A DNA stretch of 64,000 bases from Candidatus Kaiserbacteria bacterium (GTDB taxonomy: Bacteria; Patescibacteriota; Minisyncoccia; Phycocordibacterales; Phycocordibacteraceae), in NCBI GenBank assembly GCA_963813065.1, contig CAWEXP010000008.1, forward strand, positions 73,289 to 137,288. Reading direction: 5' to 3'. The position numbers and the translations under genes were made by a program. The notes below the pieces were generated by a model, which was given only the letters and a program-made list of their open reading frames with translations, was not told the origin of the DNA and ran no database searches. Shown one piece after another: positions 3,639 through 36,534 of this stretch (the stretch's first letter is position 1; the number at the start of each line of letters is the position of its first letter).

Positions 3639-3662
3639 AATATTTAAACATTTAAACATTTT

Positions 3663-8575: not shown

Positions 8576-8580
8576 TTATT

Positions 8581-20927: not shown

Positions 20928-21377
20928 ATGGAACAGCGGATTGAAAATCTCGATGAGCTCGGGCTCGCGGCGCAGGCCTTTGTTGCGCAATTGGTGCCGC
21001 GAAGAGAGGGTGCGACGCTCGTCACCCTCTCGGGCGAGCTCGGGGCGGGGAAGACCGCGTTTACCAAGGGGGTTGCGAAAGCGCTCGGTATCGAGGAAGT
21101 GGTCACCAGCCCCACGTTCGTTTTGGAAAAAATATACCAACTCAAGAATCAAAAATTTACGCGTCTCATTCATATAGATGCTTACCGTCTCGAGTCTGCC
21201 GCCGACCTCGCGTCGCTCGGTTTCGACGAAAGTATGAAGGATCCGGGGAACCTCATTTTCCTCGAATGGCCGGAACGAGTTGCTGGGGGCTTGCCGAACG
21301 CCCCGGTCGAGCTCACCTTTTCCGTCCTCCCCGACCATTCTCGCCATCTGCGGATTACAGGTACAATAGGAGGGTGA
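20928..21377 (+). CDS. tsaE: tRNA t6A biosynthesis protein TsaE (YjeE)
   Basis: P-loop LSGELGAGKTAFTKG. Probable ATG at 20928 (the track ORF starts at an upstream TTG). Confidence 0.7.
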   Translation: MEQRIENLDELGLAAQAFVAQLVPRREGATLVTLSGELGAGKTAFTKGVAKALGIEEVVTSPTFVLEKIYQLKNQKFTRLIHIDAYRLESAADLASLGFDESMKDPGNLIFLEWPERVAGGLPNAPVELTFSVLPDHSRHLRITGTIGG

Positions 21378-23689
21378 CCAAGAAACGCCTCGTCCTCTTA
21401 GACGCCCACGCGATTATCCATCGCGCGTATCACGCCTTGCCAGACTTCACCGGCCCCACAGGCGAGCCGACGGGCGCGCTCTACGGCGTCGTCGCGATGT
21501 TGCTGAAGATTATCACCGAACTCAAGCCGGATTATATTGCCGCATGCTACGACTTGCCCGGCCCCACCGTGCGCCACGAGGCCTATGCCGAGTACAAGGG
21601 CACGCGTGCGAAAACGGATGATGCACTGGTCGCTCAGCTCAATAGTTCGCGCAAAGTCTTCGAGGCGTTTTCGATTCCGGCGTATGATCGTGCAGGATTC
21701 GAGGCTGACGACTTGCTCGGCACCATCGCGCATGAGATGGAATCAAAGAAAGATATTCAAGTCATCATCGCGTCGGGCGATATGGACACGCTCCAGCTCG
21801 TTGATGACAAGCGCGTGATGGTCTATACGCTGAAGAAGGGAATTAATGACACTATTTTATACGACGAAGCAAATGTGAAAGAACGGTTTGGATTCAAGCC
21901 CGCGCTCATTCCGGATTACAAAGGCCTTCGCGGTGATCCGTCCGACAACATCAAAGGCGTCCCCGGTATTGGCGACAAGACGGCGACCGAGCTCATTGTT
22001 AATTTTGGCACCATCGAACAGCTGTATAAAAAATTGAAGAAGAGCGAGACGGTGTTGGTAGAAAAAGGCGTCAAGAAACGCGTCATCGAACTCTTGAAAG
22101 CACACGAAGAAGACGCGCTCTTCTCGAAGAGTCTTGCGACGATTCGCACCGACGCGCCGATTGCCTTCGGATTACCGAAAGACTCATGGCGCGAGGGTGT
22201 TGATGAGAAAAAAATTCTCGCAATGTGCGACGAGTTCGGATTCCGGTCGCTCAAAACGCGTATTAAAATGACGCTCGGCGGGCAGAAGCAATTTGATGAA
22301 GCTTTGGATCCGCATAGGACGAACGGGGTTGGCGAGGGCGTTCCGCCAAAGCCTTCACAAATTCCTCCTACCCGCCTCGCGCAAGCACAAGTGATGCTTT
22401 GGCTCATCTCTTCTGAATTCACTGACGCAACACTCGACGACCTGCTTGCGTTTACCAAGAAAGAAAATTTCGACGCCGCATATGCCGAGCTCGAGAAACA
22501 GCTCGGCGAGCTGGGGCGCGTGCGCGACGTGTACGAGAACATCGAGAAGCCACTCATCCCGGTTATCCGCGGGATGGAGGAGCGCGGCATTCTCGTCGAC
22601 CCCGCCGTGCTCGCGGATCTCGCGAAGAAATATCGCGCCGAGCTTGAGTCAATCGAGAAGAAAATTTATAAAGCGGCGGGGCACGAGTTCAATATCGCCT
22701 CGCCCAAACAGCTCGCGGTGGTTCTCTTCGACGAGATGCACCTCGTGCCCGAGAAGCAGAAGAAGACGCCGGGTGGCGAACGCTCGACACGCGAGAGCGA
22801 GCTGGAAAAAATAAAAGAACTGCACCCCATCGTCGCGCAGATTCTCGATTATCGCGAATTGAAAAAGTTACTCTCGACCTACATCGATAACTTGCCGCCC
22901 TTACTCGACCTTGGGCACCGCCTCCACGCACGTTTCGTCCAGACGGGTACCACCACCGGCCGCATGAGTAGCCAGGACCCGAATCTGCAGAATATTCCAC
23001 TCCATTCCGAGCGCGGCAAGGCGATTCGTCACGCATTTGTTGCAACCGATGGTTTCGAGCTTGTCTCACTCGACTATTCGCAAATCGAATTGCGTATTGC
23101 CGCCATCCTCTCAGGCGACGAGAAACTCTGCGAGATATTCCGCCACGGGCGCGACGTGCACACCGAGGTCGCATCGATGGTCTTCGGCGTTGAGGCGGAG
23201 AAGGTGGATCAAGAAATGCGCCGCCGGGCCAAGGTGATCAACTTCGGCATTCTCTACGGCATGGGCGCCAATGCTCTGCGCGCTCAACTCGGCAGCTCGA
23301 CCGCCGAGGCACATCAGTTCCTCGAAGATTATTTCCACACCTTTAAAACGCTGGCCGAATATCTCGAGACAACGCGAGGGTTCGCGCGCAAGCACGGCTA
23401 CACCGAGACCCTCTTCGGTCGCCGCCGCCAATTCTCGGAGATGAAGTCGCCTCTGCCGTATGTCCGCGCGCAAGCCGAGCGCATGGCGATCAATGCACCA
23501 ATCCAGGGTACGCAGTCAGATATCATCAAGCTCGCAATGGTGCGCGCCGACGAGATGTTGAAAGAGAAAAAGCGTCTGATGACGCACATCTTTTGCTCCA
23601 AGTGCATGACGAACTGGTCTACGAGATACAAAAAGAGCGCGTCACCAATCTCTCGGCGCGTATCAAGAAAATTATGGAATCGGTGTTGA
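21374..23689 (+). CDS. polA: DNA polymerase I (5'-3' exonuclease + polymerase domains); 3' end frameshifted, continues to 23769 in the -1 frame
   Basis: GTG start at 21374 preceded by AGGAGG. Pol A motifs RRRAKVINFGILYGMG and QGTQSDIIKLAM. After ADEMLKEKK the frame is lost. The -1 frame reads HLLLQVHDELVYE...GPNWGNLKVV-stop (canonical motif C and C-terminus). Break at the A5 run 23567-23571. Confidence 0.85.
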   Translation: MTKKRLVLLDAHAIIHRAYHALPDFTGPTGEPTGALYGVVAMLLKIITELKPDYIAACYDLPGPTVRHEAYAEYKGTRAKTDDALVAQLNSSRKVFEAFSIPAYDRAGFEADDLLGTIAHEMESKKDIQVIIASGDMDTLQLVDDKRVMVYTLKKGINDTILYDEANVKERFGFKPALIPDYKGLRGDPSDNIKGVPGIGDKTATELIVNFGTIEQLYKKLKKSETVLVEKGVKKRVIELLKAHEEDALFSKSLATIRTDAPIAFGLPKDSWREGVDEKKILAMCDEFGFRSLKTRIKMTLGGQKQFDEALDPHRTNGVGEGVPPKPSQIPPTRLAQAQVMLWLISSEFTDATLDDLLAFTKKENFDAAYAELEKQLGELGRVRDVYENIEKPLIPVIRGMEERGILVDPAVLADLAKKYRAELESIEKKIYKAAGHEFNIASPKQLAVVLFDEMHLVPEKQKKTPGGERSTRESELEKIKELHPIVAQILDYRELKKLLSTYIDNLPPLLDLGHRLHARFVQTGTTTGRMSSQDPNLQNIPLHSERGKAIRHAFVATDGFELVSLDYSQIELRIAAILSGDEKLCEIFRHGRDVHTEVASMVFGVEAEKVDQEMRRRAKVINFGILYGMGANALRAQLGSSTAEAHQFLEDYFHTFKTLAEYLETTRGFARKHGYTETLFGRRRQFSEMKSPLPYVRAQAERMAINAPIQGTQSDIIKLAMVRADEMLKEKKRLMTHIFCSKCMTNWSTRYKKSASPISRRVSRKLWNRC

Positions 23690-23765
23690 CCAAAGAAGAG
23701 GCGCGCCATGTGCCCATCCTCGCCGCAGAAAAGATTGGTCCGAATTGGGGCAATCTGAAAGTCGT

Positions 23766-24374
23766 ATGATCTACCTTTTCCACGGTTCTGACGTCGAAAA
23801 AGTGCGGCGGCAGGCGTTCGCTTTTATCGAAGCGGCACGGAAGAAGCAGCCCGACCTCGCGTATGTGCGCCTCGCGCGCGAAGAAATGACTGCGGGCGCG
23901 CTCGAGGAAGTTGCGAGCGCTGGGGGGCTCTTCGTCAGCCGCTTGCTGGTGCTCCTTGATGACCCCTTCTCGGGCGACACCAATCTCGTCGAGGAATATA
24001 TCGAACCACTCGCGAAGTCCGACAATGCGATCATTGTTCTCGCGCCGAAATTGCCGCCTGCAAAAGCAAAAAAACTTTCCGCGAAGGCGGCGAAGTCGTA
24101 CGAGTTCAATGCCGCCGCGCGCGAGGACGCGCGCGGATTTAATTCCGCACTCGTCAACGCACTCGGCGCTCGCAATCCTCAGAAACTCTGGCTCGAAGTC
24201 GTCCGCGCGCTCTCGAAGGGTGATGCACCCGAACAAGTCCACGGCCTCTTGCACTGGAAGGCCCGCACCATGTCGCGCGAACTCTCCTTGTCGCTTATTG
24301 CGCTCCTTATGGATTCTCGCCGCGCTGGCATCGACCTCGCTGAATCGCTCGAGCGCTGGGCCCTTTCTATTTAA
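23766..24374 (+). CDS. holA: DNA polymerase III delta subunit-like (HolA-like, short)
   Basis: MIYLFHGSDVEKVRRQAFAFIEAA resembles the HolA N-terminus. Start overlaps the restored polA stop (ATGA). Ends 12 bp before repeat 1. Confidence 0.45.
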   Translation: MIYLFHGSDVEKVRRQAFAFIEAARKKQPDLAYVRLAREEMTAGALEEVASAGGLFVSRLLVLLDDPFSGDTNLVEEYIEPLAKSDNAIIVLAPKLPPAKAKKLSAKAAKSYEFNAAAREDARGFNSALVNALGARNPQKLWLEVVRALSKGDAPEQVHGLLHWKARTMSRELSLSLIALLMDSRRAGIDLAESLERWALSI

Positions 24375-24386: not shown

Positions 24387-24423
24387 GTTGCACAATATCC
24401 TTTTTCCGAAGGTGGTGTGCAGG
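24387..24423 (+). repeat. Array repeat R1
   Basis: Exact 37-mer, 12 bp after the holA-like stop. Confidence 0.9.
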
Positions 24424-25041
24424 TAACTCTCGCGCTGACGGGCGCGCGAATATCGGAAGTACTGGCGCTAACCGGCGAACGTAGTGCAGAAATGTCATGG
24501 AGATGCTCGGTCAGAAACTACGCTAATCTATACAAATTTAACAATTCACTTAGAACCTCATCACGTTGACTCCGTTGAGAACACCCACCGCCTTGGCAAA
24601 GTTAATTAGCATCTAGTCGTTTCGATCAACTGAGACATTACCGGATGGGCGTCGTAATGGATCGGCCAATGAGGCTGACGCTGAGCCCGGTCTAACTCGT
24701 ATCGGCCCCGTCAACAGGGGCAAGCATTGGTCCTTTCAGCGCGGCCCGCGAGACGGTCACAGTTTGGCGTGAGATGCCGGGAGCGGACCCGCCCCATCGG
24801 TTCAGACGTAACGAGCCTTCGAGTTGCATCGGTGAAGCTATCCACACGCGGGCCTGGGCCCAATGAATACCCAAAAGTCAGAGCGCTTGCTTAGTGCGCC
24901 TAGTCGATTACATAATGGTTACTGTGTGATATTATCCACATGCGCGTCTCTGAACTTTGTGGGGAGATCGGATGAGCGTATATGTTGCCCCCAGATTACT
25001 CAGCCTTCAAGGCAAACATGAACCGAGGCCATAAGTAGAGC

Positions 25042-26265
25042 ATGTCAAACGAAGAGCGCTTAGATCAAATCCTGTCGCGTGGCGTTATCAAACAGATACT
25101 GCCGAGCGAGCAAGAGTTCAAAGAACGTATGCTCAGCGGCGCACCGCTGCGGTTTTACATCGGTGCTGATCCAACTAGTAATGCTCTCCACCTCAGTCAC
25201 GCCAAGAACTATCAAGTCTTGGAAGAATTTCGCCTACTCGGCCATGAGGTAATTGTCTTGTTCGGCGATTTCACCGCGCGTATCGGCGATCCCACAGACA
25301 GGACCGCGGCTCGATCACGTCTCACCGGCGATGAGATACGGAAAAACGTTGAGGATTGGATGAGGCAAATCCGTCCATTAATGGACTTCAGTGCCAAAGA
25401 AAACCCTCCGCGAGTTCTCTTCAATTCTGAATGGCTATCTCCTCTGACTTTCGAAGAGGTTGTGAACTTGGCATCCAACATGACAGTGCAAAGGATGCTT
25501 GAGCGAGATATGTTCGAGCGGCGCATGGAAGAGCAGAGGCCTATCTTCCTACATGAGTTCCTATATCCTCTTATGCAAGGGTACGATAGCGTCGCTATGA
25601 ATGTGGACGTTGAATTATGTGGGACTGATCAGATATTTAACGCTCTCGTTGGCCGCTCCCTTCAAAAGACGTACAACAATAAAGACAAGTTTGTAGTGGC
25701 CGTGAATCTAATGGAAAATCCGGTGACTGGAGCTCTGATGTCAAAGAGCCGAGGTACTGGAGTGTTTCTGGATGCGGAACCGTTCGATATGTACGGATCC
25801 ATAATGGCGCAACCTGACGAAATGATAGAGATAATTCTCCTCAACAATACGCGTTTGCCTAAGGACGAAATCGTCCGAGTGTTGGCCCTCGGCCCACGCG
25901 ACGCAAAAATGAGAACGGCATTTCTCGTCACCACTTTGTTTCATGGTGAGGAAGCTGCTTTCGCGGCCGAACAGAGGTTCGTTGAGGTGATACAGAAGAA
26001 AATGGCCCCCACCAGTATTCCAACCATCGGTGTTAGTAGAGAGACACCAGCTGCGTTCGAGATTGTCAGGGCGTGCCTCGACGCCAACGTATCAAATAGC
26101 GAAATAGGTCGGCTGTTCAAACAGCGCGCAATCAGGATCGATGGTGATGTCGTAGATGACCGCGACAAGGTGATCAGGCTGTCGGCCGAGGGAACGAAGG
26201 TAAATGTCGGGAAACGAAAATGGTTCAACGTCGTCGCAGCGCGTTGCGCTGACGGAGCTAGCTAG
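25042..26265 (+). CDS. tyrS: Tyrosyl-tRNA synthetase (class I, with C-terminal S4 domain) carried in cassette 1
   Basis: HIGH-type motif (ADPTSNALHLSHA), KMSKS-type motif (LMSKSRGTGV), C-terminal S4-like RLFKQRAIRIDGDVV. 407 aa. Confidence 0.8.
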   Translation: MSNEERLDQILSRGVIKQILPSEQEFKERMLSGAPLRFYIGADPTSNALHLSHAKNYQVLEEFRLLGHEVIVLFGDFTARIGDPTDRTAARSRLTGDEIRKNVEDWMRQIRPLMDFSAKENPPRVLFNSEWLSPLTFEEVVNLASNMTVQRMLERDMFERRMEEQRPIFLHEFLYPLMQGYDSVAMNVDVELCGTDQIFNALVGRSLQKTYNNKDKFVVAVNLMENPVTGALMSKSRGTGVFLDAEPFDMYGSIMAQPDEMIEIILLNNTRLPKDEIVRVLALGPRDAKMRTAFLVTTLFHGEEAAFAAEQRFVEVIQKKMAPTSIPTIGVSRETPAAFEIVRACLDANVSNSEIGRLFKQRAIRIDGDVVDDRDKVIRLSAEGTKVNVGKRKWFNVVAARCADGAS

Positions 26266-26533
26266 CGATTTCTTGAACGAAATTCTGCTCAGAACATCGT
26301 GGTTTGCTGGTCTGAACGCTCCATTGCCACTTTGGGATGTCCTATTTATTGGCGGCTCCCTAAAGTACAACATTGCACGTCCTGACTCAGATGTTGATCT
26401 GTTTCTCGTTATGCCAAGGCATATCCAGTTAGAGCGTCAGATCAACCCCGTTTACGAATTTCGATTTCGTCACCACATACAAGTCGTTTGCGTATGCATT
26501 TCTGCTGACGAAAAACAGGTGTCACACGAATAA
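26204..26533 (+). CDS. Minimal nucleotidyltransferase-fold protein (MNT-like)
   Basis: GS-x9-DxD signature (FIGGSLKYNIARPDSDVDLFLV). Overlaps the tyrS 3' end by 62 nt, so the start is uncertain. Confidence 0.45.
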   Translation: MSGNENGSTSSQRVALTELASDFLNEILLRTSWFAGLNAPLPLWDVLFIGGSLKYNIARPDSDVDLFLVMPRHIQLERQINPVYEFRFRHHIQVVCVCISADEKQVSHE

Positions 26534-26747
26534 ATGGTTGTCGTACGATCTTTGCAGATTTTCTCCGACTGTCCACGTTCTTCTATCGCGCCTGACGCAA
26601 CGAAATGGGTTGTCCAGTGACTTTTTTATACAGATGAACCAGCTATGGGGGCAACTCTTGTCTGAAGTTGGACTTACGGCAACGAAAGGCATATCATGGT
26701 CTAATCAAAACCTAGACTTGTTGCTCTTTCAATAGAGGGGCACCGCG

Positions 26748-27635
26748 ATGAACGACCACTTCGTAGCATCGTATTTTGACTTTTCTGCATTGCCGATTGA
26801 CTTTGTTGGCAAGCAGACTTTGTGGGGGGTCTCGCCGGTCTCGCCACTTCACTTGGGCTATGATGCGTTGTTTGGCATGCAGTCGCAGTTGTGCGAATTG
26901 GGTGCAAAACCTCGGACGCTGCTAGCCGACGTCCACGCGATGATGTCTCACGGGTTATCCAAGAACGACGTGGTAGTCCGTGCCAGCTACTACGATCACG
27001 TTTTGAGGGACGTGTTTTCCATAGACACAGAAGTAATTCTCGGTTCAGGGTTTGAATACACGGAAGGCTACACAGCAATTTTGTACAAAACCATGCAACA
27101 CTTTACCGTTGGTCAGTCGAAACAGGCTGCTGGAGCGACAAAGAAGAACACCCGCGACACCATCGACCGTTACGTTTATCCGCTAATGCAGTGTGTGGAC
27201 GCAGCAATTCTCGGTCCAGACATCATTGTGGCCGAGAGAAGTCAGGAAAAAATCTATAGGCTGATGAGATCGATGGCTGATGAGCCGGTTTTTGACTCAA
27301 TTTGTGCGTGGTTGTCGTCAGTACACATTGTCTATGTGGAATCAACGCACGATTTGAACGGCGAAAGGATGCAGAACAGCTCGCGGCACACCCGGATAAG
27401 CTACCACGACGAAGCTGATGTAGTGGAGGCGAAAGTGAGGAAAATGTTTGCGCCACCAGAGGCGAAACAACAAGGTGAGAAAGGGAATCCACTCTTGGTT
27501 GCACAATATCCTTTTTCCGAAGGTGGTGTGCAGGTCTTGGTTGCGGCAACGAATGGACGCGAGCCTCAATGGAGAGATATTGAAGGCCGAAAAATGGCAC
27601 TCATGCCAGAACCGCAATCTGCAGTGAGAATTTGA
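26748..27635 (+). CDS. Class I aminoacyl-tRNA synthetase-like protein (TrpRS/TyrRS family), 3' end replaced by array repeat R2
   Basis: HIGH-like region GVSPVSPLHLGYDALFG and a catalytic-core-like middle. The last ~46 codons are encoded by the repeat plus flank. Likely a truncated paralogue. Confidence 0.5.
   Translation: MNDHFVASYFDFSALPIDFVGKQTLWGVSPVSPLHLGYDALFGMQSQLCELGAKPRTLLADVHAMMSHGLSKNDVVVRASYYDHVLRDVFSIDTEVILGSGFEYTEGYTAILYKTMQHFTVGQSKQAAGATKKNTRDTIDRYVYPLMQCVDAAILGPDIIVAERSQEKIYRLMRSMADEPVFDSICAWLSSVHIVYVESTHDLNGERMQNSSRHTRISYHDEADVVEAKVRKMFAPPEAKQQGEKGNPLLVAQYPFSEGGVQVLVAATNGREPQWRDIEGRKMALMPEPQSAVRI
27498..27534 (+). repeat. Array repeat R2
   Basis: Exact 37-mer. Lies inside the 3' end of the aaRS-like ORF 26748..27635 (encodes VAQYPFSEGGVQ). 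Confidence 0.9.
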
Positions 27636-27683
27636 TGGGGAAAAGCACTTCCGCCCTAAATTTCGAGACTTTATCCGGAGGAG

Positions 27684-28712
27684 ATGATGGAAAATCGTGA
27701 TTTGGCAAGCCAAGAATTATCTGGGCTATTGTTTTCGGAGTTCGACGCGAACAAACCCATAGAGTGGAAGAATGATAGAATGTCGGCGTTTCTATTGCGA
27801 GCAGCATTTAATATTGTTCGCTGTGACGAATACCTAAGTACCATTCCCCTCACTCGGGTTCGTCCGAGCATACATCGCGAACTTTATGGCGCTCTGCGAA
27901 ACTACGCGTTGAAAGGTGACTTGGGGTTTGAAGAACATGACGAATGGAAGTTTTGGTCCATAAGTTGCTTGATCAACGACGCCCAATATCGAATCGCGGC
28001 AACGTTCGATCGATGCATAGCCCACTGGATTATTAAGTTCTTCCGTGACGTGGAGCCGTCGCATCCTCAAAAAGAAAGGGCAGCGCCCATAGAAGATCTG
28101 CTCCACTCCTGGGAGTCGGTAAAATTGATGACGCTCAAAATCTCTTTGTCGAGCATGAAACAAGTGTGCGATGCGATGCCAGACGAGAGTGGTTCGACGC
28201 TTTCTGAGTCACTCCACAAAAGCATGTTATCAATCGAAAGAATCTCTTCTGCTTTGTGGTTATCTGGAACAGATACTGCAGCAGGTGCTATTCGACATGC
28301 TCAAAATGCATACTGCAGACGCATCAGAGAGGTGGCCACATCAGGTGATTGCCTTTCGGCATACAGGCTAATCGACCAATTGTCGGTATGCAGACAGGAT
28401 GCGAAAGGGAAGATTTATGAGCGAGCGAATAACATGAACGATGAGGAATGTCTTGCTATTGTTATTGGGCGGGTAAACGATTTCAAACATCGAGCAATCG
28501 GACCAAATATTGAAGAGGAGCTGAAAGAGGAGGCGAAGCCGTACCTGCGTCACATCGAGCTTGCCATTACAATTCAGGCATTGCGCATAGTGACGCGATT
28601 TTTCAAAGCTATGTCTGCGTGTATAGAAAAAGCCTCCGAACTGGGTTTGGAGGCTTCAAAGAACAATCAAGCGCGCACTGGAGAAGTTGTACCGTTCAGT
28701 AAAGCATTGTAG
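27684..28712 (+). CDS. Hypothetical protein (cassette 2)
   Basis: 342 aa, no recognisable motif, AT-rich codon usage unlike the flanking core genes. Confidence 0.4.
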   Translation: MMENRDLASQELSGLLFSEFDANKPIEWKNDRMSAFLLRAAFNIVRCDEYLSTIPLTRVRPSIHRELYGALRNYALKGDLGFEEHDEWKFWSISCLINDAQYRIAATFDRCIAHWIIKFFRDVEPSHPQKERAAPIEDLLHSWESVKLMTLKISLSSMKQVCDAMPDESGSTLSESLHKSMLSIERISSALWLSGTDTAAGAIRHAQNAYCRRIREVATSGDCLSAYRLIDQLSVCRQDAKGKIYERANNMNDEECLAIVIGRVNDFKHRAIGPNIEEELKEEAKPYLRHIELAITIQALRIVTRFFKAMSACIEKASELGLEASKNNQARTGEVVPFSKAL

Positions 28713-29074
28713 CGCTTAAGACATTGAGGCGCCCAATGTTCCTCAAACGCCTTCGCACTTTCCTTCCCGACTCCTACGTGAAATGTCAAAATGCTGACTG
28801 CCGGTATCGCCAATGCGCGGCCTCTCAGTGCAACCGCCTTCTTAAGCAACAAGAGCTCACCTTTGGACTTTGATGTGGTGTGCTCATTCTCCAATTCGTC
28901 ATCAATTGCATCCAGCGCGCGGTCCACTTCGTCGATTGTCAGAAGTATACCGGCCGATCCTACAAACACATTAAGCAACGATGGATGCGCAAGAGCTTTC
29001 AATATAGGATGGCGAACTTCCCATTCAAACTGATCGCTGTCGCAGCATGATACCCTTGCATCTAGTGTCGTCAT
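28667..29074 (-). CDS. Hypothetical protein (only minus-strand ORF in the array)
   Basis: 135 aa, overlaps the 3' end of 27684..28712. Weak call. Confidence 0.25.
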   Translation of the reverse strand: MTTLDARVSCCDSDQFEWEVRHPILKALAHPSLLNVFVGSAGILLTIDEVDRALDAIDDELENEHTTSKSKGELLLLKKAVALRGRALAIPAVSILTFHVGVGKESAKAFEEHWAPQCLKRYNALLNGTTSPVRA

Positions 29075-29309
29075 TGCACTCTCCTGATTAGGTCAACCGA
29101 GTTCCGACGATCCAGAACCCGGCATTCGCCAACCAAGAAGCCAAGTGCTTGCACCTGAGATGTGGAGTATACGAAGTAATCAATGTAAAGGCAACTTGCC
29201 ATAGTGCTCAGTATACAGACTTAACACTATGAGCAATATTGTTCAGTATTTACTAGCCGGTCAACTACTTTCTTCTTGCTTGCTTTGAGTATGCCGCCAA
29301 CCTTGATTT

Positions 29310-29891
29310 ATGTTGTTTGATCAAGCAGGTACGCGCAAATACCTCACTGCCGATGAACGACGCGCCTTCATTCGCGCGGCAAAGCGGTTCGTTCCTCCGG
29401 TCGAAACATTCTGTCTGACCCTAGCGCTCACGGGAGGGCGAATTTCGGAGATACTCGCGCTCACGCCCGACCGCATCGACCGAGCGAGCCACACGATCAT
29501 CATTGAGAGCCTCAAAAAGCGGCGTAGCGGTGTTTTTAGAGCCGTTCCTGTGCCGGACTACCTCATAGACAAGCTGACCGCCGTTCATGGCGTTTCTAGC
29601 GGTACAGGCGACACGTCGTTACGCAGCGAGCGACTCTGGCGGTGGAGCCGAACAACGGCGTGGCACTACATAAAGACGGTGATGGTCGCTGCTGGAATTC
29701 CCCGAAACGTGTCGAAGCCAAAGGCGCTGCGCCATGGCTTCGGCGTCGCCGGTACGCAGTCAGGCGTACCACTCAATATCATCCAGCGCTGGATGGGCCA
29801 CTCTCGTCTCGAAACCACGGCGATCTATACCAACGCTGTTGGTGATGAAGAGCGCGCCTTGGCCAAGCGGATGTGGAACGGGATGCCGTAA
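29310..29891 (+). CDS. Small tyrosine recombinase / phage-integrase-family catalytic domain
   Basis: Box I Arg (LALTGGRISEILAL). Motif RHGFGVAGTQSGVPLNIIQRWMGHSRLETTAIYT (H-x-x-R ... Y nucleophile). Only 193 aa. Confidence 0.8.
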   Translation: MLFDQAGTRKYLTADERRAFIRAAKRFVPPVETFCLTLALTGGRISEILALTPDRIDRASHTIIIESLKKRRSGVFRAVPVPDYLIDKLTAVHGVSSGTGDTSLRSERLWRWSRTTAWHYIKTVMVAAGIPRNVSKPKALRHGFGVAGTQSGVPLNIIQRWMGHSRLETTAIYTNAVGDEERALAKRMWNGMP

Positions 29892-29911
29892 AGAGTCACA
29901 TAGAGAACCGC

Positions 29912-29948
29912 GTTGCACAATATCCTTTTTCCGAAGGTGGTGTGCAGG
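29912..29948 (+). repeat. Array repeat R3
   Basis: Exact 37-mer, 20 bp after the tyrosine recombinase stop. Confidence 0.9.
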
Positions 29949-30303
29949 GTATCCACTGCGACCATTATTTGCAGTGAGATTCAATTTCCAAAGCTGAAGT
30001 AGTTGTCGGCGACCCAAACATTAATTCAGTATACTGATTAAACAGAATGAAGGCATTCTGTTCAGTGTCAGCAAACTACATCCGTCTCGAAGGCGGGGCT
30101 TTGCTCCCAAAGATAGATAGGAATCTGTAGGCCGGGCACCGCGACGATTAGGGGAAAGTGCGGAAACGCAGCCGTCTTGGGACCAGAAACGACCAAAACA
30201 GCTCAATAACCGCGCCAATCCCTGGGGACAAACATCGTGGATCGATGGCGAAGCCACGGACATTGTTGCAATATTGCTCGCGGCGAATCAGTTGTAAGCT
30301 ATA

Positions 30304-31080
30304 ATGATCCTTGCACCTATGACACCTATGCGGGATGAGTGCATCTACTCGAAGTATGCGCGGTATTTCGATTTGCTTTATCCGCATGACAAGTACGAAC
30401 GGCAAGCCAACATTCTTGACGCTGTGTTTGCTCGATACAGCAACCGGAAAATATCGCACATCCTCGACTTGGCATGTGGCACTGGTTCGCTTGCGAACCT
30501 ATTGGTCAAACGGGGTTATGCAGTAACGGGTCTCGAATTGAGCAAAGAGATGATTGCTATTGCGCAAAGCAAGGTTCCCGAGTTGCATGCCGTGCAGGGC
30601 CGCCTCGAAGAATTTCCAATACGTGGATCATATGATGCCATTACGTGCGTTTCAGCGCTGAACTACCTAGAATCAGCAGGCGCTCTGGAAGAATTGTTTG
30701 CGCACTGTAGCGAGTCACTAGTCGATGGTGGGTTATTGATTATACAGAATGCGCTAGTCCGCGGACGGTCTCACAAGTTTGGGCAGCTTCACGTCAATAC
30801 TTTTTCCAACGGTTCGATTTCTCTTGCTAAGTTCGGCACCTGGGACCTGGATGAGGCAACGAACGAGTGTCAAGCAAAGTTCTGTATCTTGCTCAAACAG
30901 CACGGTCACACCAAATTCGACATAGACCTACACCGTCTTCGTGTGTTCTCAACGGGAGAAATTACGTCTGCTTTACAGAAGAGCGGTTTGCAACCGTACG
31001 TGCTTGATGAAAAGACACTTGCACCATATTTGAAATCTACGGCGCCTGCGCTCTTCGTGGGGCGCAAAATTGTATCGTGA
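30304..31080 (+). CDS. Class I SAM-dependent methyltransferase (cassette 3)
   Basis: Motif I ILDLACGTGSLANLLVKRGYAVTGLELS. Confidence 0.8.
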   Translation: MILAPMTPMRDECIYSKYARYFDLLYPHDKYERQANILDAVFARYSNRKISHILDLACGTGSLANLLVKRGYAVTGLELSKEMIAIAQSKVPELHAVQGRLEEFPIRGSYDAITCVSALNYLESAGALEELFAHCSESLVDGGLLIIQNALVRGRSHKFGQLHVNTFSNGSISLAKFGTWDLDEATNECQAKFCILLKQHGHTKFDIDLHRLRVFSTGEITSALQKSGLQPYVLDEKTLAPYLKSTAPALFVGRKIVS

Positions 31081-31288
31081 TAGTCAATTCGCTTTATTTC
31101 GGAAATTGGTATTTTCCTCAGTATCAGAGCTTGGGCGAGCGCTGCACTTTCGTTATCTGCGCGATGTATGGCATTTAATAGATATTTGCGGCCTCGAAAA
31201 AAAATCGGGGTTCTGACTCCAAACCGATAACGCAATGAAGACAGTGCGCACAGATGTGGTGCGGTGTGGTCTCCACACACAGCACGAA

Positions 31289-31325
31289 GTTGCACAATGT
31301 CCTTTTTCCGAAGGTGGTGTGCAGG
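31289..31325 (+). repeat. Array repeat R4 (variant)
   Basis: 37-mer with a single A>G change (CAATGTCC). Confidence 0.9.
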
Positions 31326-31647
31326 TAGCAGATGTCGAATACTTCATGCAGTTGGCGGCGGCGAATGGTGGTCGATGAACAGTATAAGAGTGTTCCTTCT
31401 CCGGCCTCGGACACATCCGAGGCCAGTTCGTACTTGCTGCAAGTATCGTTCTTGGGTCCCTGCTGTATTCTGTCGGCCGCATTTTCGTATATGCCCACGA
31501 TACGCGGCAGAACGATTCGTGGTCCACAAGTGGCAATGCGTTCGAAGTTCCTATGCTACAATTCCGTCATGGCTCACCAATATATGTCGCAGCAAGCAAT
31601 CACCATCCCGTTCTCAAATCAAATGACACGCGGCAACCCAGATTTTT

Positions 31648-32547
31648 ATGGAGTGGTTGGCTAGTTTCAGCTCAACCGGACTGCACTTCCTCCTGGCACT
31701 GTTCGTGGGGGTTATTTCGTTGGTCCATCCAACCCCGTCGCTGGTTTGGCAGACCGTTACTGTATCTCAAGCGTCGACCACCGCACTATCATCTGCCGTG
31801 CAGACGCAAGCTACCCAGCCGTCTGCTATGCAGACACAATCTGTTCAATGGGTGCCAATCGCAGCGGCTTCAAGCACGAGCTACTCGCAAAGCGGTTCGA
31901 TGATCTATTACGAAGGTCAGCAAATCGTCACGGCAGACCCGACTACATTCCATGTTTCGTATGACCCTTTCAGTCCAAACTCATACGCAAAGGACAAGGA
32001 TCAGGTGTACTTCGGTCACGATGCAGGTGTCGATGTTCCCTCTGTCGCAGCCGGAGCCGATGTAATTGCGGGCGCGGACCCGTCGACATTCACGCCGATC
32101 TATGACGCGGCCGGATACTTTACTTTCTATGCAAAGGACAAGAATCGCGTGTTTTATGGTGGTGGGCGTCTTTTCCACACTGAAGCGCTCCCTGCCACTT
32201 TCGTCGTTCTACCAAGCGGCGAGCCACCCGATCCAAACGTTGCTTTTTCAAAGGATCAAAATCATGTCTACACATGGGCCGGGATAGTTGTCGATGCCGA
32301 TCCGGCGTCATTTGTAGTGATTGGAACTGTTCCCTACGCACCAGAGTTCGGCAATAGTGGCCCTGTCTATGCAAAGGACAAGAGCCATGTTTTTGTATCG
32401 GATGGACGAACGCTCGCGAGAGTTATCCCGGGTGCTGATCTATCGAGTTTTGTAATCAGCCCTTATTCAGCAACATCCACCTATGACGCGGAGGACAGCA
32501 ACCACTTCTATCTCGATGGCAGGGTCGTGGCGAATGGCGCCCTGTAA
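31648..32547 (+). CDS. Secreted DKNYY-repeat protein (cassette 4)
   Basis: Signal/TM N-terminus. Repeated YAKDK(D/N)xVYFG...GADPSTF units (PF13644-like). Paralogous to 44221..45832. Confidence 0.65.
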   Translation: MEWLASFSSTGLHFLLALFVGVISLVHPTPSLVWQTVTVSQASTTALSSAVQTQATQPSAMQTQSVQWVPIAAASSTSYSQSGSMIYYEGQQIVTADPTTFHVSYDPFSPNSYAKDKDQVYFGHDAGVDVPSVAAGADVIAGADPSTFTPIYDAAGYFTFYAKDKNRVFYGGGRLFHTEALPATFVVLPSGEPPDPNVAFSKDQNHVYTWAGIVVDADPASFVVIGTVPYAPEFGNSGPVYAKDKSHVFVSDGRTLARVIPGADLSSFVISPYSATSTYDAEDSNHFYLDGRVVANGAL

Positions 32548-32576
32548 CGAGAAGTCGCGATCAACCCACGTGTCAA

Positions 32577-33176
32577 TTGACCTTTCGTTGTAACCCTAAA
32601 CTACGATTGCACGAAGGTCGCTCGTCATCCCGAAATGCTGACTTCAAAAAAGTCGGTTGCATAAAAGCCTTGAACGTCATTTGGTGCGAGGGAATTGTTA
32701 GGGCGTTGCACAATATCCTTTTTCCGAAGGTGGTGTGCAGGTTCGCTGGATCTCTAAATAGCGCTGGGCAACAGGTCGAGTCATTCATTGGTATTGTTGA
32801 AAATGGTTTTTTCGACTGGCTTAGCACATACGGCCAATCAGTTGGTGGCGGAGCGTTTGGGCAGGCCGCCGGGATTACAAATACGGCAATAGAGACAGCA
32901 AAGGTCGTAGCCGAAATTCTAGATGACGCCATAAAGTCAAAACCGGCGACTCGGCAATATCTCGATTACGAACTCCAATCATTCTGCAACGGCTCGACTT
33001 GTAGCGCGTCCCAGCTGGCCCAAGCTGCCAACGACCTCAATCAATACTCCGACGCAAAGGTTGGATTGAATCTCGTAAAACAAGGATTTGCATTGCCTAG
33101 CATGACCGAAGTCGAGTTCCTTCAGAATGCGCTAACGCAATACGCTCTTGAAAAGGGCTACAAGGTGGTAAACTGA
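32577..33176 (+). CDS. Hypothetical protein (cassette 5); true start probably downstream of repeat R5
   Basis: The track ORF reads through repeat R5 (LHNILFPKVVCR is an artefact). Downstream part is Gly/Ala-rich. Confidence 0.3.
   Translation: MTFRCNPKLRLHEGRSSSRNADFKKVGCIKALNVIWCEGIVRALHNILFPKVVCRFAGSLNSAGQQVESFIGIVENGFFDWLSTYGQSVGGGAFGQAAGITNTAIETAKVVAEILDDAIKSKPATRQYLDYELQSFCNGSTCSASQLAQAANDLNQYSDAKVGLNLVKQGFALPSMTEVEFLQNALTQYALEKGYKVVN
32705..32741 (+). repeat. Array repeat R5
   Basis: Exact 37-mer. Confidence 0.9.
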
Positions 33177-33244
33177 GTGGGCATTCACTGGGGAAGTTCT
33201 CAACCCGTGAGGCGACTTGCGCTACGTAATATCAACATCATTTT

Positions 33245-33895
33245 ATGTTTCTCATTCCGAAAGTCACATTTTATTCGTCCGCGGCATGTCTCGGCCTACT
33301 GGCGATAAGCATTGCGGTTTTTGCAATTCGCAGCGACCAACGACTACATACGCTTCCATCGGATCAGGATAGATTTGTAGCTGATTGCCTAGGGGCCAAT
33401 AGTCTCGTCACCGCATCAGATACGACCTTGTGGGCAACGTATCAAACAGCCGATGTTGTTGGAATTCCAGCGTTAAACTTCAAATATCCTAAGGGTTTCG
33501 GAATTCCGCAGTCCAAGGTGGCGGATGGTACTGAGGAAATTCTGTTTTATGACTCGATGGGAGCAATAGGTTCCCCCCTGCCATTTTGCTCCGCACTTGT
33601 CGTTGTTCCCATCAGGCTAAAACCGGATCAATCACTAGATTCGCTCGTTGCGGAACAAGCTCTCCCTATCGAAAAATTTAAAGTCACCAATCAGTTCGTC
33701 ATTAATGATTATCGCGTGGTAAGCCAAGCAGCAGCCCCTAATGCGTCAACAATTGACTACTACGTCCAGATGAATGGCGACCAAGTTTTGGACTTTGTCT
33801 TTTCGCGTTCAGGTCCCGACGGCAACTTAAATCAAATGTCAGAATACGCTGCGCTCAGCAAGCAAATCATGTACACGGTGCAGTTCACGCCTTAG
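33245..33895 (+). CDS. Membrane-anchored/secreted hypothetical protein (cassette 5)
   Basis: N-terminal TM MFLIPKVTFYSSAACLGLLAISIAVFAI. Confidence 0.45.
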   Translation: MFLIPKVTFYSSAACLGLLAISIAVFAIRSDQRLHTLPSDQDRFVADCLGANSLVTASDTTLWATYQTADVVGIPALNFKYPKGFGIPQSKVADGTEEILFYDSMGAIGSPLPFCSALVVVPIRLKPDQSLDSLVAEQALPIEKFKVTNQFVINDYRVVSQAAAPNASTIDYYVQMNGDQVLDFVFSRSGPDGNLNQMSEYAALSKQIMYTVQFTP

Positions 33896-34073
33896 CGTGC
33901 GGCTTCCCTGCCTAATCAGTCAGTGACTTCTGCTCAAGCATGTGACAAAGCGGCCTCGGTAACACCGAGGCCGCGGAAAAAACAGGGTTACAATCCTTAT
34001 TGACCAGCTTTCGCCGCCGAAAGCTGCATGAGGTATTCGACAGCCTCTTGCGCCTTGCTCGCGGCGGTGAAGA

Positions 34074-34110
34074 GTTGCACAATATCCTTTTTCCGAAGGT
34101 GGTGTGCAGG
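34074..34110 (+). repeat. Array repeat R6
   Basis: Exact 37-mer, 32 bp from the cas2 stop (34143). Confidence 0.9.
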
Positions 34111-34142
34111 GACAGGTGAATACTGGCTGGAATCGCGGATTT

Positions 34143-34439
34143 CTAGACAATTTCAAAAGACTTAGCATTATATTGCTCCTCAATAGTGGCGCTGGCAGTC
34201 GAGTTCGTCGCGCATGATTTGCAGGAGGCGAGTAGGTGCAGACGGTCTCGCTTTCCTGATAGCAATGATAACATTCGCGCCTCGAACTCCCGACGTTCTT
34301 TAAAGGAAAGGCGTCCGACGTAGAGTGTTGGTTGCAGCTTGGACAGAGCATAATTTTTGGAGAACTGCTCTGCCTGAGCCTGCCGCTTTTTGTTAGCGGT
34401 TCGCCACGCGGCGATAGTGAGGAAGCCTGGATCACTCAT
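34143..34439 (-). CDS. cas2: CRISPR-associated endoribonuclease Cas2 (divergent)
   Basis: 98 aa. 4-nt ATGA overlap with the cas1 stop. Beta1-basic stretch-beta pattern (FLTIAAW...KKRQAQ...LQPTLYVGRLS...RDRLHLL) matches the Cas2 fold order. Sequence is divergent, so identity rests mainly on size and coupling to cas1. Confidence 0.55.
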   Translation of the reverse strand: MSDPGFLTIAAWRTANKKRQAQAEQFSKNYALSKLQPTLYVGRLSFKERREFEARMLSLLSGKRDRLHLLASCKSCATNSTASATIEEQYNAKSFEIV

Positions 34440-35488
34440 GGTGCGTACTCGAAGGGTATATACATCGTCTCTTTCTCCATAAATATCCGCGCGAGGAGCT
34501 CGCTCTGCTCGGTAATCGCGGCTTTGAGCGTGCGGCGCTTGCCGCGATGGGGCACCTTGAGCTCAAGGTGCTTGAGTACCGCCTCGACCACTTTGCTTTT
34601 ACCTTGCGCCGAGAGCCGATATTCGTTTTTGCTGACCTGCTCAAAGTCGCCACGCTTGCCGAGCTCTTTGGAGATGAAAAGAGGAATGACGGCGGCATCG
34701 ACGGCTGGCACGCGAAACTCCTCGATGAGGTCCAAGACGAGCGCTGGCTTGCCATATCGTTCGGAGTGGTAGAGACCGAGGTATGGGTCGAGGCCGATAT
34801 AGAGGCAGGCGCGCTCAATCTCATTGTAGAGGATACCGTAGCCATAGTTGAGCGCGCTATTGAACTTGTCACGGCCCTGCGGGATGCGACCGGGGAACTT
34901 GAAGAGTAATCTCATGCTTTGCCAATAGCGTTCGGCGATAGAGCCCTCGAAGCCGAGCAGCTCCTCATTTGCGCGATTGCTCGGGAGCAATTTTGCGATT
35001 GACTCAAACATCGTCTCTGCCTGCATGCGTTCCTTGGCATTTTCCGCTCCGTACCGGTCGGTGAGGTGACGCATAAAGCGGATTTGGTTGCGGCACTTGC
35101 CGATGACAAACGTGCGCGCGAGTTCAAACGATTTGGTCGGGTCGGAGGAAACTGCCAGCTGTGCGCGGCGTAGCGTCGCGAGCCCCTTCGGGTCGCTGGA
35201 GAATATGCGCCCGACCGGCTTGCCGAACGCACCGAGATAAACGATGTCCACCTCATGTGCTAACGCGAGCTGTACCGCATGCATGGAGATAGAGGATGGG
35301 CGCAGTATGACAATTTTACTCAACCTACGAATTGGGTATTCTTTCTTCACGCGCGGCGGCTTCGGGAGCCCTATTGCTCGGCGTTTCCGGCCCCTCGGCA
35401 ATGGCGGTTTGGGCCCGGGGAGGGAGATGGTAATCCGCTCGCCCGTCGCGCCGATAAATGTGCCGTAGGTGTCTATCAGCAAATCCAT
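34436..35488 (-). CDS. cas1: CRISPR-associated endonuclease Cas1
   Basis: Hallmarks ERYWQSMRLLF, NSALNYGYGILYNE and GLDPYLGLYH...ALVLDLIEEFRVPAVD (compare S. pyogenes NAGLDYGYTLL / GLKH...DIMEPFRPLVD). Unusual Lys/Arg/Pro-rich insert near the N-terminus. Confidence 0.9.
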   Translation of the reverse strand: MDLLIDTYGTFIGATGERITISLPGPKPPLPRGRKRRAIGLPKPPRVKKEYPIRRLSKIVILRPSSISMHAVQLALAHEVDIVYLGAFGKPVGRIFSSDPKGLATLRRAQLAVSSDPTKSFELARTFVIGKCRNQIRFMRHLTDRYGAENAKERMQAETMFESIAKLLPSNRANEELLGFEGSIAERYWQSMRLLFKFPGRIPQGRDKFNSALNYGYGILYNEIERACLYIGLDPYLGLYHSERYGKPALVLDLIEEFRVPAVDAAVIPLFISKELGKRGDFEQVSKNEYRLSAQGKSKVVEAVLKHLELKVPHRGKRRTLKAAITEQSELLARIFMEKETMYIPFEYAP

Positions 35489-35630
35489 TGGCGAAAAAAT
35501 ACCACCGCACTTGACCGATAGTCAAGAGACTTGCTTTGTCCTCCGCGGGGGGGGGGTTCGAACCCGCGTATGCTATCATATAAAGGTAGTCGTCAAACTT
35601 GACTACAAGTGGTAGTGTTCGGCGAGACAT

Positions 35631-35702
35631 GCGCCCGTAGCTCAGCGGTAGAGCAAGAAGCTTTTAACTTCGAGGTCGGTGGTTCGATCCCACCCGGGCG
35701 CA
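35631..35702 (+). tRNA. tRNA-Lys (anticodon TTT)
   Basis: Acceptor GCGCCCG/CGGGCGC, D-arm GCTCAGCGGTAGAGC, anticodon loop CTTTTAA, T-arm GGTGGTTCGATCCCACC. No encoded CCA. Confidence 0.85.
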
Positions 35703-35703
35703 C

Positions 35704-36534
35704 ATGACTGTTTCTTTTCGAGAGCGGTGTCGAGCTCTGCGCCAGCAAGGCAAGAGGATCATTGAGATTGTGAAGATAACTGACCGGGCCAAATCTTCTG
35801 TCTATACGCACATACGAGACATGCCCCTTAGTGCGGACCGGATGCGGGCAGTGCGCGTTGCATCGGGGCGGCATATTCGGCTCTATGCGCTCGCGAGAAA
35901 GGGAAAGAGTGCGCGAAAGTTTAGGACATTCAAAAAATGGACGCCCGAGCTGGTGCTCCTCGTTGCCCACTTATTGTTTGACGGCGAAATATATCGCGGC
36001 GGAATCTACAACAACCGAAACACCGCGCTTATTGAACGCGTTGAGCAATACATGCGAATACTGTACGACTATGAACCGAAACGGTATACGAATCCCCTGA
36101 CGGGTGTGCATCGGATTAGTTATCATAATGTAGAATTCGGCGCGTTTCTAAAAGCAAAATCTCGAGAGTTACTTACGAAAGTAAAACGAATGCCGCCCGA
36201 GCTAAAACGAGAATTTTTGCGAGCATTTTTCGACGACGAGGGATGCATGGACTATCGGCCCAATGAAAATCGGAGAATGGTACGCGGGTACCAAAAAGAT
36301 GTCAGAATTCTCAAGCTCGTAAAAACGCTCCTGCAAGATTTCAGAATCTCCGCTCGTATAGTGAGACCGAACGAGGTGGTGATTGTGGGAAAAGAGAATC
36401 TAAAACGATTTCAATGCGAGATCAACTTCTCTCGCGGCATTTTTATGAACGGCGATCGCCCAAATAGTCGCTGGAAAAAACATATGGAAAAACGCGAGCT
36501 GTTGCGGCTCGCCATTGCGTCATTTAAAAATTAG
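35704..36534 (+). CDS. Double-motif LAGLIDADG homing endonuclease with N-terminal HTH
   Basis: Motifs LVAHLLFDGEI and LRAFFDDEGCM. ATG starts 2 nt after the tRNA-Lys discriminator base. Confidence 0.7.
   Translation: MTVSFRERCRALRQQGKRIIEIVKITDRAKSSVYTHIRDMPLSADRMRAVRVASGRHIRLYALARKGKSARKFRTFKKWTPELVLLVAHLLFDGEIYRGGIYNNRNTALIERVEQYMRILYDYEPKRYTNPLTGVHRISYHNVEFGAFLKAKSRELLTKVKRMPPELKREFLRAFFDDEGCMDYRPNENRRMVRGYQKDVRILKLVKTLLQDFRISARIVRPNEVVIVGKENLKRFQCEINFSRGIFMNGDRPNSRWKKHMEKRELLRLAIASFKN

Follow-up and report, generated by a model that had tools for sequence, protein, structure and literature searches.

The integration chemistry of Cas1-Cas2 is established for the systems based on short palindromic repeats that are clustered and regularly interspaced (CRISPR): 3'-OH ends attack the borders of a repeat, and the repair that follows duplicates it. 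Patescibacteria have tiny genomes, are mostly without CRISPR immunity, and rely on imported DNA. Stand-alone adaptation modules have been noted in reviews (PMC6452270), papers on CRISPR in the candidate phyla radiation (CPR) describe normal arrays (PMC8080830), and neither 'Patescibacteria' nor 'long spacers' occurs in the 2025 update of the CRISPR classification (PMC12669027). No description of kilobase-scale spacers, or of the clade discussed here, was found in the full-text literature, the coverage of which is incomplete. The subject of this report is a cas1-cas2 locus within 64 kb of a Candidatus Kaiserbacteria contig (the whole stretch is referred to as the window; statements on effectors and arrays that are specific to this genome cover these 64 kb). 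Sequence comparison suggests that the locus and its relatives are probably a mobile, effector-less Cas1-Cas2 module of Patescibacteria, derived from a type III-A system, that inserts long foreign DNA without the use of a length ruler.

Array and cas genes in the window

Six matches to the 37-nt repeat CCTGCACACCACCTTCGGAAAAAGGATATTGTGCAAC are found in the window, versus none in 100 shuffles; five are identical, one has a single mismatch, and all six belong to the array that lies 3' of cas2, with no copy elsewhere in the window (Table 1). The spacers that separate them are 1332-3074 nt in length, and are not the short, uniform spacers (about 25-50 bp) by which a CRISPR array is operationally defined. 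The leader is far shorter than the usual CRISPR leader. The sequence flanking the window repeats is not conserved, and RNAalifold, applied to 27 repeats, returned no consensus pairs and no conserved hairpin. The exact repeat has no match in JGI metagenome contigs; its only additional copies lie on two contigs, L137 and L138, that represent the same array. An independent Logan assembly contains sequence identical to the R6-R5 spacer, and L138 spans R4.

The orientation of the repeats can be read from the type III-A loci of Methanospirillum (L041 and L042), where a conserved leader sets the repeat as 5'-CTTGCA...CTGCAAC-3'. The window repeat in that orientation, CCTGCAC...TTGTGCAAC, lies on the minus strand and is co-directional with cas1-cas2, and the same is true of every related locus. 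Because the L041/L042 leader fixes the orientation, the window repeats are read on the cas1-cas2 strand, with R6 as the leader-proximal copy. A first-pass annotation of this DNA had the repeats running against the transcription of cas1-cas2, an assignment that the L041/L042 leader overturns. Its remaining observations on the layout were borne out, namely that a transfer RNA (tRNA) gene for lysine adjoins cas1, that only 32 nt separate the cas2 stop from R6, leaving a minimal leader, and that cas1-cas2 are the sole cas genes in the 64 kb. Searches with Pfam on all open reading frames (ORFs) of at least 70 aa, and with PADLOC on the 65 other ORFs, found no Cas3, Cas4, Cas5, Cas6, Cas7, Cas8, Cas9, Cas10 or Cas12 in the window and no cas10/csm effector gene, the only Cas families found being Cas1 and Cas2.

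For one of the five spacers, R3-R2, a near-identical counterpart is available. Over 1713 nt the spacer is 99.7% identical to L134 and L135, from two other datasets, and the identity starts right at the R2 border, with base 27535. The donor sequence runs on upstream of this position through the Replic_Relax gene that the spacer truncates, and the donor contig has no repeat-like site. Besides Replic_Relax, the genes of the donor encode a TrwB/TraG-type coupling protein, a tyrosine recombinase of small size, and the maturase of a group II intron. The donor is therefore a conjugative element resembling a plasmid or an integrative and conjugative element (ICE), and the recombinase family in the spacer is typical of small proteobacterial plasmids. 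In the case of the R2-R1 spacer, the sequence is colinear with positions 8165-10904 of L133, a non-Patescibacteria contig with a GC content of 64%. Here, the alignment stops exactly at the spacer border, R2 cuts the last gene 243 nt before its end, and the middle gene is frameshifted. The DKNYY gene of the R5-R4 spacer is only about 30% identical to the other DKNYY gene of the window. The spacers of this and related arrays are arbitrary pieces of DNA that include whole genes, truncated genes, and fragments of plasmids or ICEs and of operons.

Three other origins for the spacers were considered and rejected. Elsewhere in the window, neither a DNA match nor a close paralogue of these spacers is found, ruling out local duplication. 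Neither terminal inverted repeats (TIRs), for which pairings of spacer ends were no better than shuffled pairings, nor a motif resembling a protospacer-adjacent motif could be identified at the spacer ends, and the absence of TIRs and of an end motif rules out defined transposons. With regard to phages, IMG/VR contains neither the Cas1 clade nor its repeat, and by this test the module is not carried by phages. Searches with three 32-mers from the spacers returned nothing viral, and blastn of 27535-34073 gave no phage match, the sole plasmid match being a weak integrase match.

The window Cas1 reaches no subtype-specific NCBIfam cutoff. Its catalytic residues E181, H241 and D253/E256 are invariant in an alignment of 30 sequences (alignment A2). 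The best solved structural relative of the Cas1 clade profile is the Archaeoglobus fulgidus Cas1 4n06 (163 bits), with 7cr6 next at 142 bits, versus a score of 125 bits for the casposase 6opm. The assignment of cas2 is less direct, as the window protein has no Pfam match, scores 13.4 bits with TIGR01573 (cutoff 24.5), and is matched by PADLOC Cas2b at E=2.7e-4. A homologue of this protein is encoded directly 3' of cas1 in 34 loci, and the profile of the family matches solved Cas2 structures in the PDB at E=6e-9. When the profile is restricted to Patescibacteria, eight PDB matches are obtained, all of them Cas2, at marginal E values of 0.009-1. The family also aligns with canonical archaeal Cas2 proteins that bear the catalytic 'YDI' motif (alignment A6); in the clade the catalytic Asp of this motif is replaced, the window having 'WRT' and most other members 'WET', and a CxxC motif is kept. 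On the strength of these profile matches, and partly by transitive homology, the window protein is a Cas2 homologue.

Comparison of the window with L001, L002 and L006 gave ratios of nonsynonymous to synonymous substitution (dN/dS) of 0.03-0.06 for cas1 and 0.06-0.12 for cas2, with synonymous sites saturated (proportion of synonymous differences, pS, about 0.7). Such values indicate that both genes are under strong purifying selection. A sigma-70-type promoter is predicted upstream of cas1, and comparable TTGAC(A/T) promoters accompanied by a palindrome are found 5' of cas1 in L001, L006, L015 and others. In the window (35501-35525), the palindrome TTGAC-N4-GTCAA overlaps the -35 element of the predicted promoter, and may be a candidate operator for some regulator.

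Table 1. Positions of the array, the cas genes and adjacent features in the window
Feature	Position	Strand	Remarks
Repeat R1	24387-24423	-	Distal array end; 13 nt past the stop of ORF 23745-24374 (no family assigned)
Spacer R2-R1	24424-27497		3074 nt; operon piece with tyrS-like gene, unknown gene, and second gene resembling class-I aminoacyl-tRNA synthetase (aaRS); Pfam tRNA-synt_1b
Repeat R2	27498-27534	-	
Spacer R3-R2	27535-29911		2377 nt; last ~100 nt of Replic_Relax gene, 342-aa ORF, small tyrosine recombinase gene 29310-29891
Repeat R3	29912-29948	-	
Spacer R4-R3	29949-31288		1340 nt; S-adenosylmethionine (SAM) methyltransferase gene 30304-31080 (+)
Repeat R4	31289-31325	-	One mismatch; spanned by independent contig L138
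Spacer R5-R4	31326-32704		1379 nt; DKNYY-family gene 31648-32547 (+)
Repeat R5	32705-32741	-	
Spacer R6-R5	32742-34073		1332 nt; 216-aa ORF 33245-33895 (+) and an ORF running across R5; no Pfam/NCBIfam match
Repeat R6	34074-34110	-	Leader-proximal; CCTGCACACCACCTTCGGAAAAAGGATATTGTGCAAC
Leader	34111-34142	-	32 nt between cas2 stop and R6; own end ...ctgtc
cas2 (divergent in sequence)	34143-34439	-	98 aa; overlaps cas1 stop by 4 nt
cas1	34436-35488	-	350 aa; Pfam Cas_Cas1 215.8 bits, TIGR00287 221.9 bits
Predicted cas1 promoter	35496-35525	-	TTGACT, 18 nt, TG-n-TATTTT; consensus scan
tRNA-Lys(ttt)	35631-35703	+	Host flank; 142 nt upstream of cas1, divergent

Related loci and a mobile 1.5-kb unit

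More than 700 relatives of Cas1 were found, the closest named ones from Paceibacteria, Parcubacteria and other Patescibacteria. The set of loci comprises 5 obtained by exact-protein look-up, 43 from GTDB genomes, and 84 metagenome stretches retrieved with a degenerate repeat pattern. The layout of the clade is constant, with cas2 followed by 10-35 nt and then by a 36-37-nt repeat with the conserved ends CCTGCA...TTGTGCAAC. The leader-repeat junction 'ggct/CCTGCA' is conserved; apart from the window, most clade members have (g)gct right before the repeat. The same architecture is present in independent assemblies, including the complete chromosome record OY969557.1.

Two to eight repeats, co-oriented and identical or nearly so within a locus, are carried by 16 loci, which together hold 38 spacers of 140-8291 nt (mostly 140-4242 nt, with one of 8.3 kb) plus one interval of ~12 kb. 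The metagenome stretches add 17 spacers of 183-3572 nt. No spacer near 36 nt occurs in the clade, and neither the 43 genome loci nor the 84 metagenome stretches contain a short-period array with a repeat of this family. Many clade loci hold a single repeat, which may be described as a 'naive' state. Repeats are near-identical inside each locus and differ between loci in their central part, an arrangement that fits duplication of the repeat at each insertion.

The contents of spacers in other loci are as varied as the following examples illustrate. A 386-nt spacer contains a fragment of NDK (profile positions 57-134 of 135), and other spacers hold pieces of a protein kinase (the C-lobe), of thymidylate synthase (ThyA, partial) and of DnaX (truncated), all of these being genes cut at spacer borders. 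Also present in spacers are genes for an IS200 transposase, MazF toxin, dCTP deaminase and CoiA, and a metabolic block of five genes. GC content varies among the spacers of one array, from 0.37 to 0.55 in L016. Spacers are not common to different loci, save for fragments of the cas1-cas2 unit (see below) and one 191-nt match between L022 and L038. The genes within spacers are in sense orientation in L001, L015, L019 and L030.

Only cas1 and cas2 are conserved around the clade loci, with no third conserved gene detected by all-against-all ORF clustering, and the 10 kb to each side of cas1 contain no effector in any clade member. The kb-spacer and single-repeat loci form one clade, separate from canonical loci, on a rough neighbour-joining distance tree of Cas1 that has no support values and includes no casposase sequences; a deep member of this clade, L033, has 40% identity and a 3.5-kb spacer. 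A phylogeny of Cas1 was among the checks proposed in the first-pass annotation, and on this rough, casposase-free tree the clade groups with CRISPR Cas1. The nearest canonical relatives, type III-A loci at about 30% Cas1 identity, have Cas10, Csm2, Csm3 and Csm4 in the locus (Cas10 and Csm2-4 in L041, L044 and L046), and their arrays combine normal 72-76-nt periods with a recognisably homologous repeat. Other Cas1 relatives have cas4 after cas2. Taken together, the comparisons are suggestive of descent of the clade from a type III-A-type CRISPR adaptation module.

Nine loci in five metagenome-assembled genomes (MAGs) share exactly one block, which is 1.5 kb in length, 92-100% identical, and set between unrelated flanks. 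The block begins ~100 nt upstream of cas1 and ends with the final base of the first repeat, and one MAG holds four copies of this cas1-cas2-leader-repeat unit. In three loci, the start of the unit is a few nt from the 3' end of a tRNA gene: tRNA-Gly in L014, tRNA-Ser in L015 and tRNA-Arg in L016. No TIRs and no target duplication could be seen at the mapped unit ends of the nine-locus group, and no target duplication is evident at the block ends in the window. The distribution of the unit indicates that it is mobile, with its own integrase as the presumed mover.

Comparison of the window with L002, the Cas1 proteins of which are 84% identical, provides a view of two insertion sites in one syntenic background that extends from yidC to DUF378. 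Relative to L002, the block from ~24.38 to 35.54 kb of the window is an insertion between ORF 23745-24374 (downstream of polA) and tRNA-Lys. The L002 unit, which has a single repeat and no promoter, lies between ruvB and a type II/IV secretion ATPase gene. It is flanked by an 18-bp direct repeat, a sequence that the empty site of the window has once. Possibly, this repeat is a target duplication; no other locus shows one. The L002 insertion site falls within an imperfect inverted repeat of long range (9833-9857, 9962-9986), on its right arm, in the ruvB/ATPase intergenic region; this region has a conserved counterpart at 18384-18501 of the window.

Fragments of sibling units are found inside the arrays of L030, L071 and L084. 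The contig with L029 and L030 (CAVYRH010000003.1) has an intact cas1-cas2-repeat unit and, ~12 kb on, a repeat followed by a 5'-truncated cas1, cas2, leader and repeat. Four more kb-scale spacers follow the truncated unit, and the copy is 99.9-100% identical to intact units of the same MAG. The arrangement in L071 (1128-1164) and L084 (1102-1138) is the mirror image of that in L030, a repeat standing right after the first ~68 codons of cas1. The simplest explanation is that fragments of sibling units were captured as spacers, each fragment carrying its own repeat.

Lone repeats were observed in L059 (6430-6466), L063, L102 and L106, with no cas gene in the stored 2.9-9 kb on either side. The leader-like 'ggct' before the solitary repeat is kept in L059 and L106, not in L063 and L102, and the L059 repeat lies 3' of a gene resembling an NYN/LabA-type domain, as judged by eye from the translation. 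Solitary repeats may be the distal repeats of very long units, or relics.

Proposed mechanism and alternative explanations

A more specific model can be proposed, for which we regard the case as evenly balanced. According to this model, a ruler-less Cas1-Cas2 inserts kb-sized foreign DNA site-specifically at a 37-bp repeat and is carried on a self-mobile 1.5-kb unit often situated at tRNA 3' ends, the whole representing an integron-like form of capture between casposons and CRISPR adaptation. In the probable reading given at the outset, Cas1-Cas2 would recognise the junction of the very short leader with the 37-bp repeat just 3' of cas2, and would catalyse the insertions. The 3' ends of an incoming double-stranded DNA fragment would be joined to both borders of the leader-proximal repeat, the presumed point of entry for new insertions, and gap repair would then duplicate the repeat. 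Both the length ruler and the effector guided by CRISPR RNA (crRNA) would have been lost, and without a ruler fragments of about 0.14 to over 4 kb could be inserted. The smallest spacers, of ~140 nt, are near the persistence length of duplex DNA, a size that would be consistent with a donor looped so as to reach the two active sites. For the cell, the net outcome would be integron-like capture of DNA and genes rather than immunity.

Ruler-less integration of this type would account for the near-identical repeats, the fixed site by cas2, the junction motif, and the exact junction with a repeat-less donor, as well as for truncated genes and the absence of donor motifs. The suggestion of the first-pass annotation that the module had been repurposed for DNA integration, and not interference, is supported by the clade-wide effector-less layout, the kb spacing, the purifying selection, and the exact junction between repeat and foreign DNA; the mobility of the module is an addition to it.

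Several observations weigh against such a mechanism. The Cas2 protein is very divergent and without the canonical Asp, a feature to be set beside the fact that the nuclease activity of Cas2 is dispensable for integration in the systems that have been studied. A near-identical donor has been identified for one spacer only (R3-R2), and many of the repeat matches in metagenomes are solitary, with no cas gene within several kb. In addition, the orientation of genes within arrays is non-random, as evidenced by the window, where spacer genes are all on the plus strand, and by L030, where they are all on the cas strand; random capture alone does not predict co-oriented spacer genes. Selection for co-orientation with replication would be a plausible explanation, the plus strand of the window being taken as the leading strand because dnaA is at 11 kb.

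One alternative is that the unit is a selfish casposon-like transposon, moved by Cas1(-Cas2), with the kb-sized 'spacers' being by-products or cargo that have no role for the host. This possibility, which we consider unlikely, is compatible with ruler-less capture and does not exclude it. The discrete 1.5-kb ends, the multiple copies in one MAG, and the unrelated flanks are what a transposon would show, and so are the 18-bp direct duplication in L002 (a single copy at the empty site of the window), the presence of sibling-unit fragments inside the arrays of L030, L071 and L084, and the starts at tRNA 3' ends in L014, L015 and L016, since some casposons likewise target tRNA 3' ends. However, a selfish unit does not by itself explain near-identical direct repeats around unrelated foreign fragments. 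In addition, no TIRs can be seen at the unit ends and no target duplication in the nine-locus group, no family B polymerase is present, and Cas1 is nearer to CRISPR Cas1 than to the solved casposase (163 versus 125 bits). A different function for the spacers is envisaged if the array is an effector-free immune memory, acting through antisense RNA from the long spacers or through kb-long homology that traps plasmids by RecA recombination. Such a memory seems improbable. The derivation of the R3-R2 spacer from a conjugative element would agree with it, as would the finding that every window spacer gene is antisense to the direction of cas1-cas2; as the leader is too short to accommodate a promoter, the one obvious source of an array transcript is read-through from cas2, which would yield antisense RNA. 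Yet the spacer genes of L001, L015, L019 and L030 are in sense orientation, other spacers are housekeeping-type fragments (NDK, DnaX, aaRS), and a hairpin at 33950-33975, ~100 nt beyond R6, might stop read-through, this hairpin having been read from the sequence and missed by the consensus scan.

That the effector and a normal array lie elsewhere in the genome, the locus being no more than an ordinary adaptation module separated from them, is very unlikely, even though many genomes are known to carry adaptation modules on their own (PMC6452270) and the inspection covers 64 kb of this one. The first-pass annotation had named this scenario as the one that would overturn its reading, and at the level of the family the searches did not bear it out. 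The adjacent kb spacers cannot yield normal crRNAs, the exact window repeat is without a match in JGI metagenome contigs, the 43 genome loci and 84 metagenome stretches have no short-period array of the repeat family, and effectors are absent within 10 kb of cas1 throughout the clade. Recombination of the integron or att type, with the repeats as sites for the tyrosine recombinase at 29310-29891 and Cas1-Cas2 incidental, would be in keeping with the gene-sized units, reminiscent of integron cassettes, and with the end of the recombinase gene 20 nt before R3. The recombinase, however, is not conserved in the clade and came within the captured plasmid fragment, the donor is without a repeat-like site, the repeats have no conserved hairpin, and truncated genes are found among the spacers. 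A model based on a tyrosine recombinase and attC-like sites is thus largely ruled out by the non-conserved recombinase and the repeat-less donor, and we regard it as highly improbable. Least credible is a decaying CRISPR remnant or an assembly artefact, to which we attach almost no weight. A Cas2 that misses curated thresholds, and an L002 unit with one repeat and no promoter, might be taken as signs of decay, whereas dN/dS is far below 1 for both genes, the repeats are perfectly conserved, and the architecture recurs in independent assemblies (OY969557.1, and the Logan assembly across R4). Selection and replicate assemblies rule this explanation out.

Genomic surroundings and comparison with known systems

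The genes surrounding the locus are housekeeping genes of Patescibacteria, and include dnaA, dnaN, yidC, a PBP1-type transglycosylase/transpeptidase gene, ruvABC, a type II/IV secretion ATPase gene, polA, and a Mur ligase gene. In the search for a structured repeat RNA, Rfam identified nothing other than tRNA-Lys and one sub-threshold match on that same tRNA. The match of the polA ORF (21266-23689) to the family A polymerase profile breaks off at position 328 of 381, and the final ~40 residues appear to be out of frame; an error of assembly or a frameshift close to 23.55 kb could be responsible. No convincing ORF is found at 1-2200. A cluster resembling type IV secretion genes occupies 2240-9762, near the replication origin region (dnaA at 11056), and includes a TraG/VirB4-type ATPase (3663-5483) and a protein resembling a pilin of a type IV secretion system (7037-8575).

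ORFs resembling homing endonucleases abut tRNA genes at three places in the window, namely 35704-36534, 58286-58990 and 54385-55092. The first begins 1 nt past tRNA-Lys, as is also the case in L002, and is a LAGLIDADG protein by Pfam. The ORF at 58286-58990 stops 10 nt short of tRNA-Leu (59000), that at 54385-55092 adjoins tRNA-Val/Leu, and neither has a Pfam match at 1e-5. PADLOC reported one homing-endonuclease match in the window, the ORF not being specified. Finally, the segment 50196-60032, with bounds at tRNA-Arg (50196) and tRNA-Leu (59000), may be an integrated element. This candidate contains a full large serine recombinase gene (51355-52698, minus strand), a second serine recombinase copy without the resolvase domain (59211-60032, minus strand), and a SocA/Panacea antitoxin-like gene (50422-50961).

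CRISPR finders cap the length of spacers, and would therefore be expected to call the loci of this clade array-less, in other words orphan cas1-cas2. If capture without a ruler is correct, a CRISPR integrase can work without a molecular ruler on fragments of 0.1-4 kb, and adaptation modules can persist, spread, and stay under selection without an interference partner. The module would then represent a dedicated route by which Patescibacteria, where it appears to be widespread, gain foreign genes and plasmid fragments. It would also bear on the origin of adaptive immunity from casposon-like transposons, possibly as a reversion of that process. Moreover, a pair of enzymes able to place kb-sized DNA at one defined 37-bp site, whatever the donor sequence, would be a valuable tool for genome writing or recording.

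Among known systems, the modules linked to type III-A effectors in Methanospirillum, Methanocalculus and Bacteroidales (L039-L046) have a homologous Cas1 (about 30% identity), a homologous Cas2, and a homologous 37-nt repeat with the conserved ends C-TGCA...AAAAA..AAGGA..TGCAAC. As in the Patescibacteria clade, the repeat lies 3' of cas2 in the same orientation, and the copies are identical, as repeat duplication predicts. Unlike these modules, in which spacers measure about 36 nt, the clade has spacers that range from 140 nt to more than 4 kb, and a leader of 10-35 nt that leaves no room for a promoter. It is also without Cas10/Csm, Cas6 and Cas4, has lost the Asp of Cas2, and its unit is mobile.

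Casposons resemble the clade in that an integrase of the Cas1 family is linked to the movement or insertion of kb-sized DNA, and in the insertion by tRNA 3' ends in three loci and the one possible 18-bp target duplication (L002). Casposons are defined by TIRs and a target-site duplication of 14-15 bp, whereas no TIRs or duplications could be seen at the precisely mapped unit ends of the nine loci, the 18-bp duplication of L002 standing alone. The clade also possesses both Cas2 and a CRISPR repeat. The only polymerase in the window is encoded by the chromosomal polA, outside the block, with no PolB conserved near cas1, and the Cas1 of the clade groups with CRISPR Cas1 by profile bits and on the rough neighbour-joining tree, in which casposase sequences are not included.

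With integrons the likeness is one of outcome, an integrase gene standing beside a one-directional array of gene-sized units between short repeats, the content of which is very different in close relatives. In contrast to integrons, the enzyme is Cas1-Cas2, no tyrosine recombinase of the IntI type is conserved, and the only recombinase sits inside a spacer and is absent from the other loci. Where integrons have imperfect attC hairpins, the repeats here are identical and lack structure. No recombination site exists on the donor, and the units are arbitrary fragments by which genes are cut. The orphan adaptation modules of CRISPR surveys share with the clade the presence of cas1-cas2 without an effector in the locus (PMC6452270). 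What sets the present loci apart from the surveyed modules is the combination of arrays with kb spacers, a dedicated clade in Patescibacteria, and the mobility of the unit.

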